From a virus (lineage: Duplodnaviria; Caudoviricetes), in IMG/VR virus record IMGVR_UViG_3300030330_005672, positions 1-38,126 of that record: 38,126 nt of DNA. One strand, written 5' to 3'. Positions 1-24,924 of this stretch are shown here, piece by piece. The notes beneath the pieces were generated by a model. It did not search any database. It saw only the letters and a program-made list of their open reading frames with translations, and had not been told where the DNA came from. The stretch's first letter is position 1. Each line of letters starts with the position of its first letter. The position numbers were made by a program, and so were the translations under genes.

Positions 1-38
1 CCGATACAGGGTCCAACACACACACTGGAGAAATATTC
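1..38 (+). promoter_or_regulatory. Partial third copy of the early leader module (truncated by window edge) with shared RBS ACACTGGAGAAA
   Basis: 1-13 CCGATACAGGGTC matches the leader hairpin of repeat A (minus strand 9441-9453); 6-36 matches the leader at 12267-12292 (minus) apart from extra AC units; GGAG upstream of ATG 39. Confidence 0.8.
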
Positions 39-512: not shown

Positions 513-538
513 TCCCCTCACACACACTGGAGAATGTA

Positions 539-1201
539 ATGTGTCAGAAGTATCTCACCCCTACACCTCCCTATCTCAAACCGATCACCCTCGACCTTAA
601 AAAATTCCCCATGCTAGAAGCTCGACAAAGCACACCTTTCTTTGTTGACTTCTTCAGGTTCTCTGAAGATAGGTCCTTGGATATTACTATAGTCCAAAGA
701 GTTAATAGTGACCTACTGGGGGTCTTGGCTGACCTTGCGATGTGGGAGTCATGGAGAGGTGTTTGGGGTCGCCGCCCTTGGAAACCGCTTCATCCTATCG
801 GGAAGCTCGCTGACTGGAAGCTCGCTGACTGCAAATGTTACTTTGGTCTTAAAGGGCCTCGATTGAAAATGATTGAAGGCTTGAAAGCAATTCAAGCAGA
901 AGTTCAGGAGATTTATAAAATCGTCGAATCAAACGAGATCCACTATCGAATCCTTGACGACGATCAATTGCCCCTCTCAGACATTGAGTTTACCGCGCCT
1001 GTTCGGTCGTTATTGGTCGCTTGGTATCTACATAAAGATACTGGCGAAGGCTCAAAGATCTTCGCTTTCCATTCATATACAGACGCGCTTCGTCTCGCTC
1101 CTGTTCGCTTTGAAGTTACTGACCCCCAATCCCTAGAGGATCGTGTTACCCGTAACAAAAAAAGACTAGAAATAAATAATCTCTTCTTAGGTCAGAATTA
1201 A
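539..1201 (+). CDS. Hypothetical early protein (mosaic); start corrected to ATG 539
   Basis: ACACTGGAGAA at 524-534 precedes MCQKYL; contains IHYRILD...GSKIFAF...EVTD block. Confidence 0.8.
   Translation: MCQKYLTPTPPYLKPITLDLKKFPMLEARQSTPFFVDFFRFSEDRSLDITIVQRVNSDLLGVLADLAMWESWRGVWGRRPWKPLHPIGKLADWKLADCKCYFGLKGPRLKMIEGLKAIQAEVQEIYKIVESNEIHYRILDDDQLPLSDIEFTAPVRSLLVAWYLHKDTGEGSKIFAFHSYTDALRLAPVRFEVTDPQSLEDRVTRNKKRLEINNLFLGQN
801..830 (+). repeat. 15-bp perfect in-frame tandem duplication GGAAGCTCGCTGACT x2
   Basis: 801-815 identical to 816-830; encodes KLADW-KLADC. Confidence 0.95.
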
Positions 1202-3793: not shown

Positions 3794-3844
3794 CTGAAAT
3801 CCTAACATTCGGTAATGTGTGAATATCGAATGTTAGGATTTCAG
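3794..3844. repeat. Perfect 18-bp inverted repeat (terminator or RNA processing hairpin)
   Basis: CTGAAATCCTAACATTCG (3794-3811) / CGAATGTTAGGATTTCAG (3827-3844); T-rich run follows on the + strand. Confidence 0.85.
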
Positions 3845-5534: not shown

Positions 5535-5976
5535 TGATTTCTCCTGTGTGTGAATCGAGATCAAGATCATAACCCGCGCTGGATAAGATCTCAAGAGCGT
5601 GTTGCAGTCCGTAGGCAACCTCAGCGCGCCACCCGATCGCGCGAAGCTCCTCTAGCCACACTCTCTGATGAGCGGACACTCTTCCGCGCGCTTTACCGAA
5701 TCCTTGAGGACGTTTCAGCTCAAGCGCGAGCCCTGTACCGATCCCTGAAGGGGGAGGGGTAAAAATTAAAATATCGGGTACTCCTGCCTTGACCCCTTGA
5801 GCTTTCAAGCTTGCGGCGGTCCTCTTATCTCGTTTGCCCCCGTTGGCTGTCGCAGTCCATAGTAAGTGAGCATCATCCAGATATCTCACAAGCGCTTTCT
5901 GAATATCTGCCTCAGAGGGTGCGCTTGATTTTGATCGGGGTTGGCTTCTCGGTCCTCGATATGGGGATGGTTTCAT
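5512..5976 (-). CDS. VRR-NUC domain nuclease (PD-(D/E)xK, resolvase-like)
   Basis: EADIQ, NGGKR, GVKAGVPDILI, LELK, GRVSAHQ..W motifs. Confidence 0.85.
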   Translation of the reverse strand: MKPSPYRGPRSQPRSKSSAPSEADIQKALVRYLDDAHLLWTATANGGKRDKRTAASLKAQGVKAGVPDILIFTPPPSGIGTGLALELKRPQGFGKARGRVSAHQRVWLEELRAIGWRAEVAYGLQHALEILSSAGYDLDLDSHTGEINDHHDND

Positions 5977-6026
5977 ATTTTATCCTCTCGTCATCCCCTC
6001 AAGTGTACATCATCTCCTCTCAAACA

Positions 6027-6497
6027 TGTGTACAGGATATGCTAAAAAATCCCGTACACACTTAAAGTACTGTACTTGTTAGGTTTTTCGCCTTTTGTAA
6101 ACAAGTGTGTACGCGATGTGTGCAGGATTTTAAAAATCCCGTACACACTTAAAGTATTGTAAAATAACAAGAAAACACCCCTTTTTCAAATGTGTGCACG
6201 ATTTTACGTCAACTCCTTATATATATGCGCGTATATTTATCCTCTTTTTTACCTTTTCTGGTCACAGATCCTCTTCTAAAACTTAATTCTCTCGTGTAAG
6301 AGTTTGCGATTTTACCAATATCCTGCACACACTCTCTCTTTATCTATGTATTTCAATAACTTAAGTGTGTACGGGATTTTTAAAAACCTGCACACACTAT
6401 TTTCGAAACATCCTATTTCCTGTTGTTTTACAGTAACTTAAGTGTGTACGGGATTTTTTAGAGATCGTGCACACATTTGGAAAATCGTGCACACATT
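6027..6497. repeat. Symmetric iteron-like array, probable replication origin
   Basis: AAAAATCCCGTACACACTTAA at 6045-6065 and 6132-6152, inverted at 6361-6381 and 6438-6458; each paired with a TGTGTRCA(G/C)G-type half-site; AT-rich, no ORF. Confidence 0.75.
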
Positions 6498-6507
6498 TTA
6501 AACCCTC

Positions 6508-6552
6508 TTGACAAGTCCGAAAATATTATCTATAACCTTTGGTTATAGATAA
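6508..6552 (+). promoter_or_regulatory. Sigma70-type promoter with palindromic operator over the -10 box
   Basis: TTGACA(6508-13)-17-TATAAC(6531-36); perfect 12-bp IR TTATCTATAACC-ttt-GGTTATAGATAA 6526-6552. Confidence 0.8.
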
Positions 6553-7032: not shown

Positions 7033-7386
7033 AAAACTTGCCGGTGGAGAGATGACGGTTGGCCAAAGAATAAGTCTATTAGCGATAGTAAGACTAGTGC
7101 AGGAATAGACAGAACGGATGATATTAAAAAGGGGATCTACCAAACGATAAAGATAGGTACTGAAGTCAAAAGTAACTCAAACATCAAGACTGCAATTATT
7201 TCTAACCTTCCTGCTTATAGACATAAAAATGATTACGTCTCTCCATTTGAAAATATGCTTTGGGGCCTCGAGAGTGATATCATGGAAACTTCTAACGGAG
7301 ACGTTATCTATAAGGAAGACTTACGTAGAGTTTTTGATTTTATTATTACATTAGAACAGCCACTTTTGAGGCACATTACATTATGA
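7033..7386 (+). pseudogene. 5'-truncated gene remnant, probably the C-terminus of the cognate restriction endonuclease
   Basis: Frame open 7006-7386 with no ATG until 7255; encodes ...SISDSKTSAGIDRTDDIKKGIYQ...; AT-rich like the MTase; stop overlaps MTase start (ATGA 7383-7386). Confidence 0.55.
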
Positions 7387-8444
7387 CACTGCCTAACCAC
7401 CAAACCAGAGAGTATACTGGCATTGTGCTTGAAAGAATGAAACATTTGCCACCAGGTGGAAAAATGGGAGATCTTCCTGAGCATCTACAGCATAAAAGTT
7501 TTATCCGTAAAGGAGATAAAAAAACTGGCGGTCCAAATATGAGGTTGTTGAGATTAGAGGAGGACAAACCCTCTCTAACTGTAACAGCTTATATTTTTAA
7601 TAAATTTGTTCATCCTACTGAAAATAGGTACATAACACCGAGAGAAGCCGCTGTACTTCAAGATTTTCCTATCGATTATGAATTTAAAGGTACATTAGGA
7701 CAAGTTCAAAAACAAATCGGTAATGCTGTTCCAGTAGGTCTTGCTAGAGAGTTAGCTAAGAGAGTCGCAAAGTATTTTGAAAGACTTAACAAAAGCGGAA
7801 TTCTGAAAATTGCTTCATATTTTACTGGAGCTGGAGGATTAGACCTTGGCTTTGAACAAGCTTCTGATGAGTTCATACAGTTTGAAACCCATTTCTCCAC
7901 AGATATTGAAAAATGGGCTGAGTCGACTATTCAGCACAATCGACCTGAGTGGAATTTTCATAGAGCGGATATCACAGAGCTAGATCCAAATTTAGTCAAA
8001 GATGTGATAGGAGGTAATCCAGATATTATAATTGGGGGACCTCCTTGTCAACCATTCAGTGTGGCGGGTAAGCAAAAAGCGACTAATGATCCTCTAGGTA
8101 TCCTTTACCGAGATTATATTGAACAAGTTGATAAGTTAAAACCTGAAATTGTTGTTATGGAAAACGTTTATGGTTTAGCTCAAGTCAAAAATGTAAATAT
8201 GATTGAGGAAATATATAGTTCTTTCCAAGACATTGGTTATGATGTCTCACATAGAGAGCTAATGGCCGCAGATTATGGTGTTCCTCAAAAGCGGAGAAGG
8301 TTATTTTTTGTTGCGGCTAAAAACTTACACTATTTCCAATACCCACAACCCACGCATTGTTCAACTGAGAACTTATTGAATTTACCTTTATATGAGGGAG
8401 CAGGAAAAGCTATAATGAAACTTCCAAAGCCGTCTATTAGATAA
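7383..8444 (+). CDS. Circularly permuted DNA cytosine-C5 methyltransferase (TRD-IX-X-I...VIII), AT-rich acquired gene
   Basis: TPREAAVLQDFP (IX) and QIGNAVP (X) precede FTGAGG (I), GPPCQPFS (IV), ENV (VI), PQKRRR (VIII). Confidence 0.92.
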   Translation: MTLPNHQTREYTGIVLERMKHLPPGGKMGDLPEHLQHKSFIRKGDKKTGGPNMRLLRLEEDKPSLTVTAYIFNKFVHPTENRYITPREAAVLQDFPIDYEFKGTLGQVQKQIGNAVPVGLARELAKRVAKYFERLNKSGILKIASYFTGAGGLDLGFEQASDEFIQFETHFSTDIEKWAESTIQHNRPEWNFHRADITELDPNLVKDVIGGNPDIIIGGPPCQPFSVAGKQKATNDPLGILYRDYIEQVDKLKPEIVVMENVYGLAQVKNVNMIEEIYSSFQDIGYDVSHRELMAADYGVPQKRRRLFFVAAKNLHYFQYPQPTHCSTENLLNLPLYEGAGKAIMKLPKPSIR

Positions 8445-8531: not shown

Positions 8532-9008
8532 TCAATCCATGAAGTTAAAGTATTTCTTTCGCCCGTCCCAAGTCGATGCATACTCAGAACTGTCAACCTT
8601 GATCTGGTAGCCTGCGCCATAGGGCGTGATCCTCTTATTTTTAAAATAGGTATCACTGCCGCTCTCTTCACAGTCAGAAGGGACAACATAACCGTCATAA
8701 CCTGCTTCACCTTCAACCACTTCATTCTCAAGCTTCTGTACAGAGACAGACTTACCAGAGGGAGAGACCTTGACCACCTTATAGAAGCCCACGATGGTCA
8801 TCGAGTAACCCCATGAAGAGAACAGAATATCGCCCACTTTAGGGATAGAGGGATCAACAGGCATTTGAGCGCGCTCGATCTTGTCCTTTTGGTCTTGAAG
8901 ACTGTTGAGATACTTGAAGTAGTCATCAGCACTGAGGACGCCAGCCAGGTAAAGATCTTTGATCTGTTGAATCTGGTTTTCGATTGTTGTGATGTTGTCT
9001 TGTGACAT
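8532..9008 (-). CDS. Hypothetical early protein (likely start at second ATG, MSQDN)
   Basis: Shared ACACTGGAGAA RBS; KVGDILFSSWGYSMT..FYKVV motif seen in small phage/plasmid proteins. Confidence 0.8.
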   Translation of the reverse strand: MSQDNITTIENQIQQIKDLYLAGVLSADDYFKYLNSLQDQKDKIERAQMPVDPSIPKVGDILFSSWGYSMTIVGFYKVVKVSPSGKSVSVQKLENEVVEGEAGYDGYVVPSDCEESGSDTYFKNKRITPYGAGYQIKVDSSEYASTWDGRKKYFNFMD

Positions 9009-9050
9009 GTTCATTCTCCAGTGTGTGTTGAACCTTTGCAGGCTCTTGTG

Positions 9051-9421: not shown

Positions 9422-9422
9422 A

Positions 9423-9551
9423 TTCATTCTCCAGTGTGGTGACCCTGTATCGGGTCGGTGTGTGTGTCAGAGTGATCAACCACTCTATGTAAACGATCAT
9501 ATACATAACTGAGACACAACGCAAGCACTTTTTAAAATAAATTTAAAATAA
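9423..9551 (-). promoter_or_regulatory. Repeat A copy 1: strong early promoter plus structured 5' leader
   Basis: AT-rich UP tract, TTGCGT(9524-19)-17-TATGAT(9501-9496), hairpins AGAGTG/CACTCT and GACCC/GGGTC, RBS; near-identical to 13255-13382. Confidence 0.9.
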
Positions 9552-9585
9552 TCTTTTAAGCCCGAAATGAACGGGGTATATTATA

Positions 9586-9662
9586 GGTGTGTGTCGGGAA
9601 ATTTGACCGCGTGGGCTGTGCTTTCTCCAGTGTTTAGGGTTCGCGCGGTCGGTTTCCCACTA
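9586..9662 (+). ncRNA. Candidate small RNA: long hairpin whose loop is antisense to the shared early RBS
   Basis: 21-bp stem 9596-9617/9638-9658 with 6 G·U pairs valid only on the + strand; loop contains TTTCTCCAGTGT; TATATTAT -10-like box at 9577-9584. Confidence 0.55.
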
Positions 9663-9669
9663 ATCTTAC

Positions 9670-10146
9670 TCAATCTTGATCAGGTAACCACGTCTCAACC
9701 TTTTCATCGAGTTCTACCTGATCCTCGGTGAGTGTCTGTAGATCTCTGAATCGAGCAAGTTCTTGAATCATGAGCGTCTGCAGTTGAGAGAGTTGATCAT
9801 TTTTAAGTTGAAGAGAGATCTGTGCATCTCTGAGACGTGCGATGAGTGCGCTTCGATCTGCCTCTTGAGCAGATAGACGATCTTTTAACTCTTCAATCTC
9901 TGCGGGGTCCCGTCCAGAGGCTACGGCGATCATGGCAGAGATCGAGCCCGTGAGCACGCCCAGAATCCCAACCAACACATCACGATTATCCTTATTGATC
10001 TCGACCTTGGCGAGAAAGATGATCAGGAGCAGGATGAGGGCGAGATAGATGACACTGAACAGCCACCCGCGCCGCGCTTTGATCTCAGTGAGTGAGGGGG
10101 GCGCTTGATCCTCATCAGGGTCTTGTTGGGTCTCTGGTTCAGTCAC
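9670..10146 (-). CDS. Membrane protein with two TM helices and a C-terminal coiled coil
   Basis: WLFSVIYLALILLLIIFLA and VLVGILGVLTGSISAMIAV; heptad-rich tail; GTGA overlap with cyclase stop. Confidence 0.8.
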   Translation of the reverse strand: MTEPETQQDPDEDQAPPSLTEIKARRGWLFSVIYLALILLLIIFLAKVEINKDNRDVLVGILGVLTGSISAMIAVASGRDPAEIEELKDRLSAQEADRSALIARLRDAQISLQLKNDQLSQLQTLMIQELARFRDLQTLTEDQVELDEKVETWLPDQD

Positions 10147-10985
10147 GGGCGCTCTCCAGTGAGAATGAAGGTGGTCAAACTAACGACATACTCTATCCAT
10201 GACCAAGGGGGATGATCAAGGCCCCATATCTCGCGCGCGCTTGGTTTACGGATGAAGTTGAAGAAGAGAAAGAGGAGATAGACCAGGTTGATGAGAGCGA
10301 ACCGATAGAAGATCCAGAGGAACAGCTCACGCGCTCGCATGTGGCGAAGATGACTCTTGATGCGTTTAGGCCCTCCGAGCCTGCGCGCCTTCTCTGAACC
10401 TTCAGGGGGTTGCAGGCTCTCGGTAGTGATCCCGACACAGTAGACAGTCACAGGACGCTTGACGCCTTTAAATTGATAGAGACCTGCGACCGCGTAGCGC
10501 GTGCCTCTTGGCGTGTCATAATTCGTCATGTCTTTGATCGCCCTGAAGGCATCTTGAGTCAGGAGCACTTGACCAGATCCGCAGAGAGACATAGTGCGCG
10601 CGGCAATGTTTTTTGCAACCCCTTCAAGCTCAACCGGCTTTGCCCCGCCCATGATCTCAAGCTCGTTCTGAGTCACCTCCACAACGTCACCGACATGAAC
10701 CCCGATCCGTGTATTGAGCCTGATCTTGATGGGGATCGTGATCTGATAATGGAGGGCGAAGTTTACCGCATCGATGGGGCGATTGAATGAGAGCAGGAAA
10801 CCGTCACTCCGATCAATCTCTCTCCCACTAAACTTGTACATGAGCGAGCGTGTGAGACGATCATGATACTGTAACCAAGACGCGGCTTTCATCGGTCCGA
10901 CTTTCTGAACGAAGGCCGTTGAACCGATGAGATCTAAAAGAACAATCGCGAGGCGTCTCTCGCGCATGATCGGAGCTTTGCTCAT
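10143..10985 (-). CDS. Class III nucleotidyl (adenylate/guanylate-type) cyclase with C-terminal TM segment
   Basis: LLDLIGST, DRSDGF, RIGVHVGDV, GVAKNIAAR, GQVLLT, FKGV motifs. Confidence 0.88.
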   Translation of the reverse strand: MSKAPIMRERRLAIVLLDLIGSTAFVQKVGPMKAASWLQYHDRLTRSLMYKFSGREIDRSDGFLLSFNRPIDAVNFALHYQITIPIKIRLNTRIGVHVGDVVEVTQNELEIMGGAKPVELEGVAKNIAARTMSLCGSGQVLLTQDAFRAIKDMTNYDTPRGTRYAVAGLYQFKGVKRPVTVYCVGITTESLQPPEGSEKARRLGGPKRIKSHLRHMRARELFLWIFYRFALINLVYLLFLFFNFIRKPSAREIWGLDHPPWSWIEYVVSLTTFILTGERP

Positions 10986-11022: not shown

Positions 11023-11673
11023 TCACGCTTGGTCAGGTTTTGGATATGGGGAGAGCGGATAACACAGCGCGCGCTTCATCGCGTCTCTCTTGCGCTTTGG
11101 CCCTAACAACTTCAGGTATCTGTGCTTCTCACCTGTCTTCACAGCGCGGAGCCCTAGCGAGGACGCCTGCGCACTGGTCATGTTAGCGCCGTTTGTGCGC
11201 CTGTGTCGCTGTCTCCCGTTGGCGTCGATGAACCCGCTCGAGCTCTCGCTCACTCCGCAGTAGAGCCAACTCATCGCTTGATACACGCCCCCGTGATGGT
11301 CCTCGCTCATGTCAGCGTAAGAGATCAGGGCGTAGCAGGGGATCATGTCACGGCGCGCGCGCTCTGAAGTCCAAACCTTGACCGCGCGCGAGACGAACTG
11401 AGACGCGATAACCCCAGAGTCAGGAGCGATCGCGAGGCGCACCAACTCAAAGACATGAGGGGCCAAGTCACCGAACCACGCGCGCCTCACGTTAGGAGCG
11501 GCGGGGGTCGCGAACGAGACACACGCGACAAGGCGCCCATCAACATACTGAGCGTAAGACATAAAGGCGTTACCGCACCCGCCTAGATAATGATGCTCAT
11601 CATAGAAGGCGCGCGCGGTGTGTCGAGAGACCTTCTCGAGCTGGTCAGTGTTAAAGAGGTCGAGCTGTATCAT
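11023..11673 (-). CDS. Mom-family (GNAT-fold) DNA adenine modification protein
   Basis: HHYLG, ELVRLA, SQFVSR, LISYAD, HHGGVYQAMSWLY.G, KHRY motifs match Mu Mom-like proteins. Confidence 0.8.
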   Translation of the reverse strand: MIQLDLFNTDQLEKVSRHTARAFYDEHHYLGGCGNAFMSYAQYVDGRLVACVSFATPAAPNVRRAWFGDLAPHVFELVRLAIAPDSGVIASQFVSRAVKVWTSERARRDMIPCYALISYADMSEDHHGGVYQAMSWLYCGVSESSSGFIDANGRQRHRRTNGANMTSAQASSLGLRAVKTGEKHRYLKLLGPKRKRDAMKRALCYPLSPYPKPDQA

Positions 11674-11679
11674 GTTCTC

Positions 11680-12264
11680 TTAATCGTCAGGGTTGAGAAG
11701 CCTGTAATCAAGTTGCAAGTAGCTGATGAGGTCAGGGTGTGTCTTGGTCAGCGCGCGCTTGACATACTTAGGGAGATCATCGAGATACTCTCCAAAAAAT
11801 TCAACCCTCCCAGTTCCGTACCCTTTGAGTTTCCGTCTCTTGTACACTGTCCATGTAGGAGAGAGGTCTTTGATCTTGAGATCTCGATATGTTGCGAGAG
11901 CCTGATCCACTTGCTTGAGCGAAAAGGTCCAGAGATCCCCCTCGCGAGAAGAGAGACGGATCTCATAAACGGTCTTAGGGCGCTTGTTCGGGGTCGCTTT
12001 GTGGACCCTCTTACCGTCATTGATTGAGATGGATGTACACCCCTTAAAGTTACTGAGCAGGGCGCGAGGTTTGACAATGCCTACAACCTTACCTTCATAT
12101 TGAGCGCCGCGCTTGCTGTACACGGTGAAAGAATGAGTAGGGAGATCATGGGCCTCTTTTACGGTCAATGTCGTGTCGGCAGGACCTTGAAGCCCTACCG
12201 CGTCAGAGAACAAGGTATCTTGACCCGTCCTGTGATCTTTAGTGATGATGTAACGATATTTCAT
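11680..12264 (-). CDS. Hypothetical basic early protein
   Basis: Shared ACACTGGAGAAA RBS; downstream of repeat B copy 2. Confidence 0.75.
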   Translation of the reverse strand: MKYRYIITKDHRTGQDTLFSDAVGLQGPADTTLTVKEAHDLPTHSFTVYSKRGAQYEGKVVGIVKPRALLSNFKGCTSISINDGKRVHKATPNKRPKTVYEIRLSSREGDLWTFSLKQVDQALATYRDLKIKDLSPTWTVYKRRKLKGYGTGRVEFFGEYLDDLPKYVKRALTKTHPDLISYLQLDYRLLNPDD

Positions 12265-12311
12265 CGATATTTCTCCAGTGTGTTGGACCCTGTTGTGTGT
12301 CTTGGGTCTGT

Positions 12312-12392
12312 TGTGTTGATACCTCGCTTATGAGGTCAGGACCTTGAAGCCCTCGCACGAATCCAAGTCTTAAAGACCTGTGACGCCTTTCA
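12312..12392 (-). repeat. Repeat B copy 2: structured intergenic RNA element
   Basis: Matches 9051-9130; includes the TGA stop of the upstream gene. Confidence 0.9.
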
Positions 12393-13253
12393 ACCTTCTG
12401 TGCCGCAATACTTATCAAGTTTACGCATTCCTTTATCGTATGCCTTTTGTAAAGTCCTTTTAGCCTGAAGATCGCGGCGAGTGCTGAACAAAGTGTAGTT
12501 GATATAGTCACCAAGACCACCTACCGCGTCATCAAGTACTGAAATCCAATCTCCGAAATACTCCTCAACAAAGTCATCATAACAAGCGAGGCCGCGAGTT
12601 TGGGCGCTTTGCATGTAGCAAGCTTTATTGATGGTCTGGACGAGTTCAAGCTCCTCCTCCGGATTGCGTCGCTCAAGTGTAACGGTCTCAGTCTCAGTTA
12701 CGGTCTCGGTCTCGGTCTCGGTCTTAGGTTCGGGCTTGGGAGCCTCACTCAGCGAGCCGAGCTGACTCAGCCTTTCGACGAGACAGGCTGGGACCTCATC
12801 GGTCTCTCCATTACAGTAAGCAACGACCGCTTCGTTATTAAGGCGAGCGACCTCCGAAGGGTTGACCCGACCGTGAGACAGATCCCAAGTCGTGATCCCG
12901 AAAAGGACCGTCCCGTCGTTCAAGAACTCATCGACGAAGATCGTGAGGTCGGTCGAGCCAAAATTTCGGAGAAATCCATTCTCATCCATGATGTGAACAG
13001 CGATATCGATCCGATCATTGATCTCGAAGTCATCGCGATCGAGGCCGAGAGCTTCAAGATCGAGATAGAATTCGTCGCTCACTGGAGCTGTGTTGAAGAC
13101 GGAAGAGAGAGCAACGTTGATGAGAGCGTCACTCTGAAGCGAACGACGCTCGAAGGCAAGAGCAATGTGAGCAGGGAGATCTGCTCTAGCGTAGTAGCCT
13201 CCGCTGAGAATATCTGAGGGGAGATCGCAGTTCGGAAGAGTTAGGAAGTTCAT
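12390..13253 (-). CDS. Acidic hypothetical early protein with TE-repeat linker
   Basis: First gene after repeat A copy 2; D/E-rich; KTETETETVTETET linker. Confidence 0.8.
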   Translation of the reverse strand: MNFLTLPNCDLPSDILSGGYYARADLPAHIALAFERRSLQSDALINVALSSVFNTAPVSDEFYLDLEALGLDRDDFEINDRIDIAVHIMDENGFLRNFGSTDLTIFVDEFLNDGTVLFGITTWDLSHGRVNPSEVARLNNEAVVAYCNGETDEVPACLVERLSQLGSLSEAPKPEPKTETETETVTETETVTLERRNPEEELELVQTINKACYMQSAQTRGLACYDDFVEEYFGDWISVLDDAVGGLGDYINYTLFSTRRDLQAKRTLQKAYDKGMRKLDKYCGTEG

Positions 13254-13254
13254 G

Positions 13255-13382
13255 TTCATTCTCCAGTGTGGTGACCCTGTATCAGGTCGGTGTGTGTGTC
13301 AGAGTGTCGATCACTCTATGTAAACGATCATATACATAACTGAGACAGAACACAAGCACTTTTGAAAATAAATTTAAAATAA
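13255..13382 (-). promoter_or_regulatory. Repeat A copy 2: early promoter plus leader
   Basis: TTGTGT(13355-50)-17-TATGAT(13332-27); same hairpins and RBS as 9423-9551. Confidence 0.9.
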
Positions 13383-24146: not shown

Positions 24147-24924
24147 AAAACACCACCTCTGAGAGCTTGGGTAAGTTGCGCTTGAGTCCACCACTCAGGA
24201 CGATCTGAGATCCTGAGTGCGTGTAGGTGTATCGTCTACCGCCCACGCTCACCACGCCGCTGTCAGGAAAAGAGAGCGTACTCTCTGTAGAGAGATCAGT
24301 CTCACCCCTCGCGTGATCACGAGATAGGACCGTTTGAGGTGATCCCACGTGTTCCTGTGAGATGCGCCCGAAGATATCAAGAATCATGTGCAGGTAGGGA
24401 GGGCGCGCGGGTTTAGAGACTGCAAAATCTACAGGCTCAAGCCCGTTGAATCTGGCGCCTGTTTGATAAAAACTTGGAGGTAATCGACGTGATAAATATC
24501 GCTCACTCCCTCGGTTGTCAGGCTCGATCTTGAGCGCGGTTCCGATCGTGTACGTCTGCGCGAAATTCGGCCCACAGTGAAGCGTGATCGTGTAACTACC
24601 CGCAGGAGCAGGGGGCGTGTACGCCTCAAGATCACCGCGCCGCTTGAGGAGGTTCGGCCCTTGACTCGCGATCCCTGAGTAGAAATAGGTCAGCACACCC
24701 TCAACCTGTATCGAGAGTCTGAAGGGTGAGAGGTTATCGCTCAAGGGACCTGTGACTTGTACTTTCGCCCCTCCTCGATGGTGAACTTTTGAAGATCTCA
24801 GCTCAAGGTACAGGAGCGCCTCTTGATTAGGAGAGCCGTACCCGCGCTCAAGCGCGACACCTGCGAGGGATTCAGGGTCACCGTATCCAAGTCCTCCGCT
24901 CTCTGGGTCTCCATATCCGCGCAT
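24136..24924 (-). CDS. Virion structural protein with Ig/IPT-like domain and GYGDPES repeats
   Basis: GYGDPES x2 plus GYGSP; GG..V.V.G...TPPAPAG.Y.ITL pattern. Confidence 0.5.
   Translation of the reverse strand: MRGYGDPESGGLGYGDPESLAGVALERGYGSPNQEALLYLELRSSKVHHRGGAKVQVTGPLSDNLSPFRLSIQVEGVLTYFYSGIASQGPNLLKRRGDLEAYTPPAPAGSYTITLHCGPNFAQTYTIGTALKIEPDNRGSERYLSRRLPPSFYQTGARFNGLEPVDFAVSKPARPPYLHMILDIFGRISQEHVGSPQTVLSRDHARGETDLSTESTLSFPDSGVVSVGGRRYTYTHSGSQIVLSGGLKRNLPKLSEVVFYAP

Follow-up and report, generated by a model that had tools for sequence, protein, structure and literature searches.

What is the role of a phage hairpin whose loop is the exact antisense of a ribosome-binding site (RBS) block shared by several genes of the same phage? 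Such a hairpin lies at positions 9596-9658 of the window, that is, the whole 38,126-nucleotide stretch of DNA analysed here, which constitutes one virus contig with an estimated completeness of 56%. Pfam and PHROGs comparisons identified a tail sheath, baseplate, DNA polymerase A, primase, thymidylate synthase, methylases and a Mom-family protein among the encoded products, together with a weak match only for a class III cyclase, and, judged from the tail sheath, baseplate and other matched families, the window is a myophage fragment. The sequencing runs that contain the phage carry marine or seawater labels. The search for a cultured relative gave none, the best match of the DNA polymerase being 28% identical and DNA matches to cultured phages being limited to an AT tract. 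Neither an integrase nor a repressor family was detected among the window proteins scanned (42 by Pfam, 22 by PHROGs) of this 56% complete contig, and an Rfam scan of the entire window (E<=1) yielded no convincing match, the single match (E 0.24) lying outside the hairpin.

Several other features of the window deserve mention. A near-perfect 21-bp inverted repeat at 3794-3844 (z about -9 on either strand), located between two minus-strand genes, has similar sequence in the metagenomic loci L132 and L159 and is possibly a DNA site rather than an RNA. The non-coding stretch 6020-6552, with its iteron-like repeats in inverted orientation, is a candidate origin or packaging region; it also contains a palindrome at 6526-6552, which is found again in L132, L138 and L141. 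The plus-strand gene 7383-8444 encodes a C5 cytosine methyltransferase with two apparently permuted Pfam stretches in a segment that is AT-richer than its surroundings. The Mom-family gene at 11023-11679 is cleanly missing from L131 and from two runs, in whose contigs 11025 is joined to 11679; on this comparison it is a variable DNA-modification gene.

The interval 9500-9720 was compared in four sequencing runs, in which contigs of X3, X7 and X11 cross the hairpin and that of X5 is a loose end. The hairpin and its 5' flank consist of the following parts:

9572-9586 (+): promoter-like block with a -10-like TATATTAT (9577-9584), conserved; predicted start near G9589
9587-9595 (+): 5' tail, predicted to be mostly single-stranded; its core GUGUGU (9589-9594) is complementary to the ACACAC tracts of leaders
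9596-9617 (+): 5' arm of the 21-bp stem, with compensatory changes in X7
9618-9637 (+): 20-nt loop; seed UUUCUCCAGUG(U) at 9622-9633 is antisense to the RBS tag, and 9622-9632 is constant in X3, X5, X7, X11 and L131
9638-9658 (+): 3' stem arm, from folding and alignment, with no U-tract after it

The sequence-only reading had described a 21-bp stem with one bulged U and six G·U pairs on the plus strand, and this was borne out by folding: 9596-9617 pairs with 9638-9658, the bulge being U9603 or U9604 with about equal likelihood. Folding of both strands as RNA (9590-9662) favoured the plus strand, with -34.0 kcal/mol (z -4.2) versus -21.3 kcal/mol (z -2.7) for the minus strand; with DNA parameters there was little strand difference (-13.6 versus -11.8). 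Opening the loop seed has a computed cost of 1.2 kcal/mol. No intrinsic terminator was predicted on either strand, there being no U-tract behind the hairpin and a loop of 20 nt.

The -10-like box that had been proposed at 9577-9584 is present and conserved, as no differences are listed for 9572-9586 in the X3, X7 and X11 contigs and GG-GTATATTA of the block is retained in L132, but it is accompanied by no canonical -35 and a sigma-70 scan calls no site at 9577. Similarly, the proposed second seed in the tail, GTGTGTGTC (9587-9595), is complementary to the leaders designated A1 and A2 (GACACACAC occurs three times in the window, in the tail and in these two leaders), but only six of its nine bases are conserved: positions 9587, 9588 and 9595 differ among relatives and the core GUGUGU is constant. 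In L132 GUGUGU is missing 5' of the hairpin, and GUGUGUGUU is instead found 3' of a second hairpin.

To which sequences does the loop correspond? The tag ACACTGGAGAA is present in seven exact copies in the window (at 22, 524, 9014, 9427, 9623, 12271 and 13259) and in one further copy with one mismatch (at 5539). Eight copies at <=1 mismatch were reached in none of 100 shuffled windows (mean 0.68, maximum 3). Six of the exact copies sit 4-6 nt 5' of an ATG, before non-structural genes, in each case matching the loop exactly as the sequence-only reading had claimed; the seventh, 9623-9633, is the reverse complement of the hairpin loop and, again as claimed, is the sole full motif with no start codon behind it. 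As the chance of finding a given 11-mer inside a 20-nt loop is 2.4e-6, and the window has only seven strand-listed stems with at least 14 contiguous pairs, the anti-tag loop is not ascribed to chance. All seven exact copies are confined to 1-13.3 kb and none occurs in the tail region (22.7-38 kb), where the late genes at 24924 and 31146 have the RBS ACAGGAG, versus ACUGGAG in the tagged genes. The corresponding leaders and sites are:

1-38 (+): target leader, truncated by the contig end, of gene 39-512; tag 22-33
519-538 (+): target leader of gene 539-1201; tag 524-534; 27 nt identical in L132
9009-9132 (-): leader B1 of gene 8532-9014; tag 9014-9024; three or four small hairpins and an ACACAC tract
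9422-9551 (-): cassette A1; tag 9427-9437; AT-rich tract, promoter, hairpin, ACACAC tract, hairpin
9524-9496 (-): A1 promoter, sigma-70-like TTGCGT-17-TATGAT, identified by eye and under the sigma-70 scan threshold
10153-10161 (-): seventh site CACUGGAGA, 9 nt, RBS of gene 9670-10146; kept in L131, U-to-A in L132 and L133
12265-12394 (-): leader B2 of gene 11680-12264; tag 12270-12281
13254-13382 (-): cassette A2, copy of A1, of gene 12390-13259; tag 13259-13269

All six leaders of the original target list were thus recovered, but the list had missed the seventh, 9-nt site before the gene adjacent to the hairpin. The leaders have in common an ACACAC tract, usually a small hairpin, and then (C)ACACUGGAGAA. 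These parts are supplemented in type A (A1, A2) by an AT-rich tract and the sigma-70-like promoter seen by eye, and in type B (B1, B2) by a group of small hairpins. The same leaders front different genes in L001, L131 and L132, where variants of the A1 promoter also occur; the L132 homolog of gene 39-512, for example, has a repeat-B leader. Furthermore, run contigs have joints at the leader edges, several of them with short sides. The adjacent minus-strand gene 9670-10146 encodes a 158-aa predicted membrane protein with a hydrophobic hairpin, a coiled coil and 1417 homologs, and is paired with a class III cyclase-like protein with a hydrophobic C-terminus (both within 9670-10985, minus strand). 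This pair superficially resembles Pycsar; PADLOC returned no matches for 10 proteins.

When 41 hand-listed starts were ordered by the energy of their duplex with the loop, the seven tagged starts occupied ranks 1-7 (-20.8 to -18.3; next -16.5), the neighbouring gene ranking second. The 12-nt seed alone gave -16 to -18.5 on tagged leaders versus -9.1 and -12.0 on two late genes. In a genome-wide duplex scan that allowed long G·U-rich duplexes, eight untagged sites outscored the best leader, and the case therefore rests on the exact seed match and not on energy. The opening cost of the six target sites tested ranged from 1.1 to 5.2 kcal/mol, with the highest value at the site of the 10146 neighbour (10153-10161), which has no ACACAC tract.

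The metagenome survey took in 80 of at least 297 loci, from 42 of 64 parts. L130 is the same phage (99.7%) and hence not an independent comparison, while L131 (91% identical in the region) has a hairpin of the X11 type, with the same changes in both. Between the window and L131, five of the 21 pairs differ, all by G·U/G-C exchanges, and 42 of 42 cells are paired, in a two-row alignment for which the shuffle control is uninformative. In X7, the outer stem retains 16 of 16 pairs despite 11 substitutions, with two-sided changes at three pairs (9597/9657, 9600/9654 and 9602/9652) and one-sided changes at four (hand counts). The inner stem of X7 is rebuilt: all nine bases of 9613-9621 are changed and eight bases are lost 3' of the seed, with 9622-9632 intact; the loose end of X5 has the 3' side as in X7. 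Over the window, L131 and X7 there are ten distinct non-Watson-Crick pair states, and all ten are G·U on the plus strand (sign test about 0.002). These variants are small in number and related to one another, comprising three contigs, a loose end and two loci. The claim of a conserved plus-strand structured RNA is accordingly one of comparison, in which pair changes, G·U states and seed conservation favour the plus strand, and it appears very probable that plus-strand stem pairing is kept and the seed conserved in relatives.

A further check concerned covariation of loop and leaders. In L132, the promoter block is the same but the stem that follows it is unrelated; its apical loop contains UUUCUCCUG, and UUUCUCC stands at the same distance to the -10 box as in the window. 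The z of this stem is -3.0 versus -1.2 on the other strand, and only -0.6 with flanks. The discriminating base of this loop is U, compared with A in the window. The U matches the promoter-A leader and the RBS of the neighbouring gene (both CAGGAGA), two of the four tagged start sites, but the other two leaders keep ACACUGGAGAA, where the predicted loop pairing extends over only 6-8 bp. As read from these sites, covariation would be partial at best. Directly behind the anti-RBS hairpin, L132 contains a second, very stable hairpin (531-618, minus strand; z -6.9), whose loop measures 41 nt and after which GUGUGUGUU occurs; the window has no counterpart of it.

A covariance model built from the window and L131 found only those two among 83 sources, L132 scoring E 0.87 through its promoter part alone. 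The eleven next-closest loci (L133-L143) have no such hairpin after the neighbouring gene; as no tagged leaders occur in their available DNA either, they neither support nor refute the proposal. Pattern scans of viral contigs for the RNA gave 0, 0 and 1 matches, the one (L215) being unrelated; a tag scan gave 119 stretches, none from a related phage, and promoter-A and repeat-B scans returned L001 again or unrelated matches only. Genome contigs contained no protein relative, and none of their 10 pattern matches was accompanied by a relative of a window protein. Within the reach of these data, the hairpin element would be confined to a narrow clade.

Two other groups of hairpins were set apart. 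That of L151 is treated as a lead only, since it lies within a coding region, is non-syntenic and is one of 46 TCTCC-loop hairpins in the 83 sources; those that precede the large terminase gene in 31 distant loci were rejected as homologs because their loops vary. As observations in their own right, the L151 structure (7630-7690, minus strand) has a stem of 14 bp and is antisense to the 3'-terminal part of a small-terminase-like gene, its loop containing UGUGUC and UUCUCCUGUGG, complementary to the CCACAGGAGAA leaders (ACAGGAGAA) of the same phage, and a hairpin of variable sequence stands just upstream of the large terminase start in L149, L154, L161, L164, L166, L172, L178, L183, L189, L204 and L207.

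Is an RBS tag of this kind without precedent? The sequence-only reading knew of no described RBS barcode common to many genes, which proved wrong: the start-associated sequences (SAS) of cluster K mycobacteriophages are a published 13-bp RBS repeat with 11-19 copies before non-structural genes (PMC3203893). Like the window tag, the SAS is an asymmetric repeat that contains the Shine-Dalgarno sequence, extends beyond it and lies shortly before non-structural starts (3-7 bp, compared with 4-6 nt in the window); it differs in belonging to unrelated phages, in its sequence (compared by eye) and in copy number (11-19 versus at least six in the window). The window tag is thus an analogue of the SAS and not a member. 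Four phages carry one reversed SAS that is tied to no gene start; as to the function of the SAS in general, both an RNA and a protein partner were considered possible in 2011 (PMC3203893). SAS function was still ill-defined in 2024, and the late transcripts of Adephagia are reported to start in the interval separating genes 92 and 93 (PMC11373665). We found the sole reversed SAS of Adephagia (L226:30667-30714, about 58,666-58,713 of the record) and that of Anaya (L227:31855-31900) at the apex of a hairpin of roughly 20 bp, within a loop of 10 nt; this hairpin is placed in the gene 92-93 gap, with a second long hairpin just upstream. The reversed SAS is absent from Pixie and TM4 (two of four cluster K right arms). 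The hairpin region has matches in 150 phage records, and a hairpin with a CUCC loop is present in six of eight divergent cluster K matches, chosen among the matches listed (30). In Hammy and Bryler the loop differs by one base with the SAS unchanged, so that the loop-SAS covariation looked for in these two was not found, and folding energy gives no plus-strand preference in Adephagia or Anaya. Unlike the window hairpin, the reversed SAS shares its strand with the tagged genes and lies close to the late start; as far as the accessible texts of PMC3203893 and PMC11373665 go, it is not described as a hairpin RNA. The cluster K hairpin is an analogy from an unrelated phage group and not evidence on the window locus. 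A literature search, mainly of open-access main texts, returned no phage RNA described as reading a shared RBS tag; on this basis such a barcode is already known, and no description of an RNA that reads one was encountered.

C4 carries a single-stranded seed complementary to its target RBS, in an operon context similar to that of CI, and to our knowledge the phage antisense repressors known to date each control one operon. C4 regulates the P1 antirepressor (PMC8201110) and CI maintains P4 lysogeny, being processed from the transcript under its control, pairing with the flanking seqA and seqC and causing termination (PMC4825925); both mechanisms are taken here from secondary sources (PMC2864571, PMC4825925, PMC10695390, PMC8201110). 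Like C4 (P1/P7, RF01695) and CI (P4), the window hairpin would be a short structured phage RNA with single-stranded seeds on phage transcripts, and in silico its loop seed is complementary to the target RBS, as in C4. Unlike them, it lies behind a divergent promoter-like block of its own, and its six or seven putative targets are scattered over three transcription units. Assignment to C4 was rejected, since the Rfam scan of the whole window (E<=1) gave no C4 match, as was a C4-type icd/ant immunity operon, no such families occurring among the scanned proteins of this 56% complete contig; assignment to CI was rejected because the target sites are on the opposite strand or kilobases away. In bacteria, RsaE, FsrA and RNAIII use a C-rich loop to bind the RBS of several mRNAs and repress translation (PMC4152353), and GcvB contacts, through its G/U-rich R1 seed, C/A-rich enhancer elements that lie 5' of the RBS (PMC7769764). 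These RNAs are chromosomal and pair imperfectly with unrelated host mRNAs, whereas the window loop has an exact 11-12-nt match to the phage's own duplicated tag. By analogy, the window RNA would work like C4, CI or RsaE, yet it is not a member of these families. The leaders themselves recall the PeSL cassettes of T4-like phages, in which an AT-rich tract, a sigma-70-like promoter, a stem-loop and a Shine-Dalgarno sequence accompany small genes that are swapped (PMC2839356, PMC4122927). A1 and A2 carry all PeSL-type parts in one repeated unit, their promoter being identified by eye and under the scan threshold; they differ in that their stem-loops lie within the transcribed leader, and the main text of PMC2839356 mentions no antisense partner.

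Taken together, we favour the interpretation, with a probability of roughly 0.55, that 9596-9658 forms a trans-acting loop-seed RNA that blocks translation of the tag-bearing, probably early, genes. A plus-strand RNA of roughly 70 nt would start near 9589 and be transcribed divergently from promoter A1; as no terminator follows the stem, trimming to the stem would probably produce the 3' end. From the open loop a duplex of 11-12 bp would form that covers the Shine-Dalgarno GGAG together with the bases 5' of it, GUGUGU may form a weaker second contact on the ACACAC tracts, and the U of ACUGGAG would tell tagged genes from late genes with ACAGGAG. As genes appear to be swapped at the leader repeats, any gene landing behind a tagged leader would come under control of the RNA. 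Pairing with the leaders in vivo seems likely and repression of the tagged genes somewhat probable; a role in early-to-late timing, for which 'early' derives from promoter-like sequence and gene position only, is a tentative suggestion with slightly less than even odds.

Four other explanations were weighed against this one. The same RNA and pairing could serve immunity or superinfection exclusion, being made in a lysogen or carrier cell to silence incoming relatives, for which C4 and CI are precedents (PMC8201110, PMC4825925); the U/A tag variants among relatives and the incompleteness of the contig (56%) would fit, but the scanned proteins include no integrase or repressor families (42 by Pfam, 22 by PHROGs) and the cross-match table has no clean self/non-self pattern, which leaves this role improbable. 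Slightly less probable still is a local antitoxin-like repressor with the convergent neighbour 9670-10146 as its main target, the early leaders matching incidentally. In type I toxin-antitoxin systems the RNA antitoxin counters a small hydrophobic toxic peptide; the neighbour is a 158-aa protein with a hydrophobic hairpin. The RBS of the neighbour does track the loop at the discriminating base in the window, L131 and L132, its duplex ranks second of 41, and a longer plus-strand transcript would be antisense to the neighbour's 3' end. However, the neighbour has 1417 homologs, compared with two sequences (the window and L131) that the hairpin model recovers from 83 sources, its site is the costliest to open (5.2 kcal/mol) and without an ACACAC tract, and six better-matched leaders would be bound in any case. 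We give similarly low odds to an RNA that pairs with the leaders and, instead of repressing, protects, processes or times them, e.g. by directing or blocking a nuclease: the sequence does not give the direction of the effect, and several leader hairpins resemble processing or stability elements, but the seed covers the Shine-Dalgarno sequence, and such loop seeds repress in RsaE, FsrA and RNAIII (PMC4152353).

Least probable of the four is an element of the minus strand, whether as the remnant of a decayed leader, as a decoy for a protein or as a structure at the 3' end of the mRNA of the cyclase operon; the tag would then be a duplication by-product or a protein site. The hairpin lies 11 nt past the minus-strand stop codon at 9670, a perfect TATAAT is present on that strand at 9585-9580, and the minus strand folds too (z -2.7; -4.5 in L131); in addition, PeSL-like duplication (PMC2839356) accounts for the repeated tag and leaders without any RNA, but not for the antisense loop. 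Against this, the ten non-Watson-Crick states would all be A·C mismatches on the minus strand, no U-tract is present, there is a single GGA loop, and the two motifs are ordered opposite to the leaders. The same mismatches, missing U-tract and lone GGA loop tell against the alternative named beforehand, a mere terminator or decoy of the cyclase operon. Decoys of the CsrB/RsmZ type have several GGA-bearing loops per RNA, and this type was rejected for the hairpin, which has just one, on the disfavoured strand.

The hairpin with its anti-barcode loop is therefore regarded, by comparison of relatives, as a real, conserved element of the plus strand, with repression of the tagged genes as its most likely function. 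Extending the analogy to cluster K, unrelated phages may repeatedly have evolved an RNA-only regulon, consisting of an RBS barcode on swappable early cassettes and one anti-barcode hairpin RNA, although we hold this idea to be somewhat less likely than its opposite. If it is true, a gene recombined into such a cassette would be switched off on schedule without a protein repressor, the marine hairpin would be one case and the reversed SAS of Adephagia another, independent one, and the SAS would gain the explanation that it has lacked since 2011. As the analogous hairpin occurs in Adephagia, a cultured and engineerable phage, the SAS question is testable there. A single RNA that recognises a tag common to dispersed, interchangeable genes would represent a new layer of the phage timing programme, and such a tag-reading RNA would be a compact tool to switch off gene sets.
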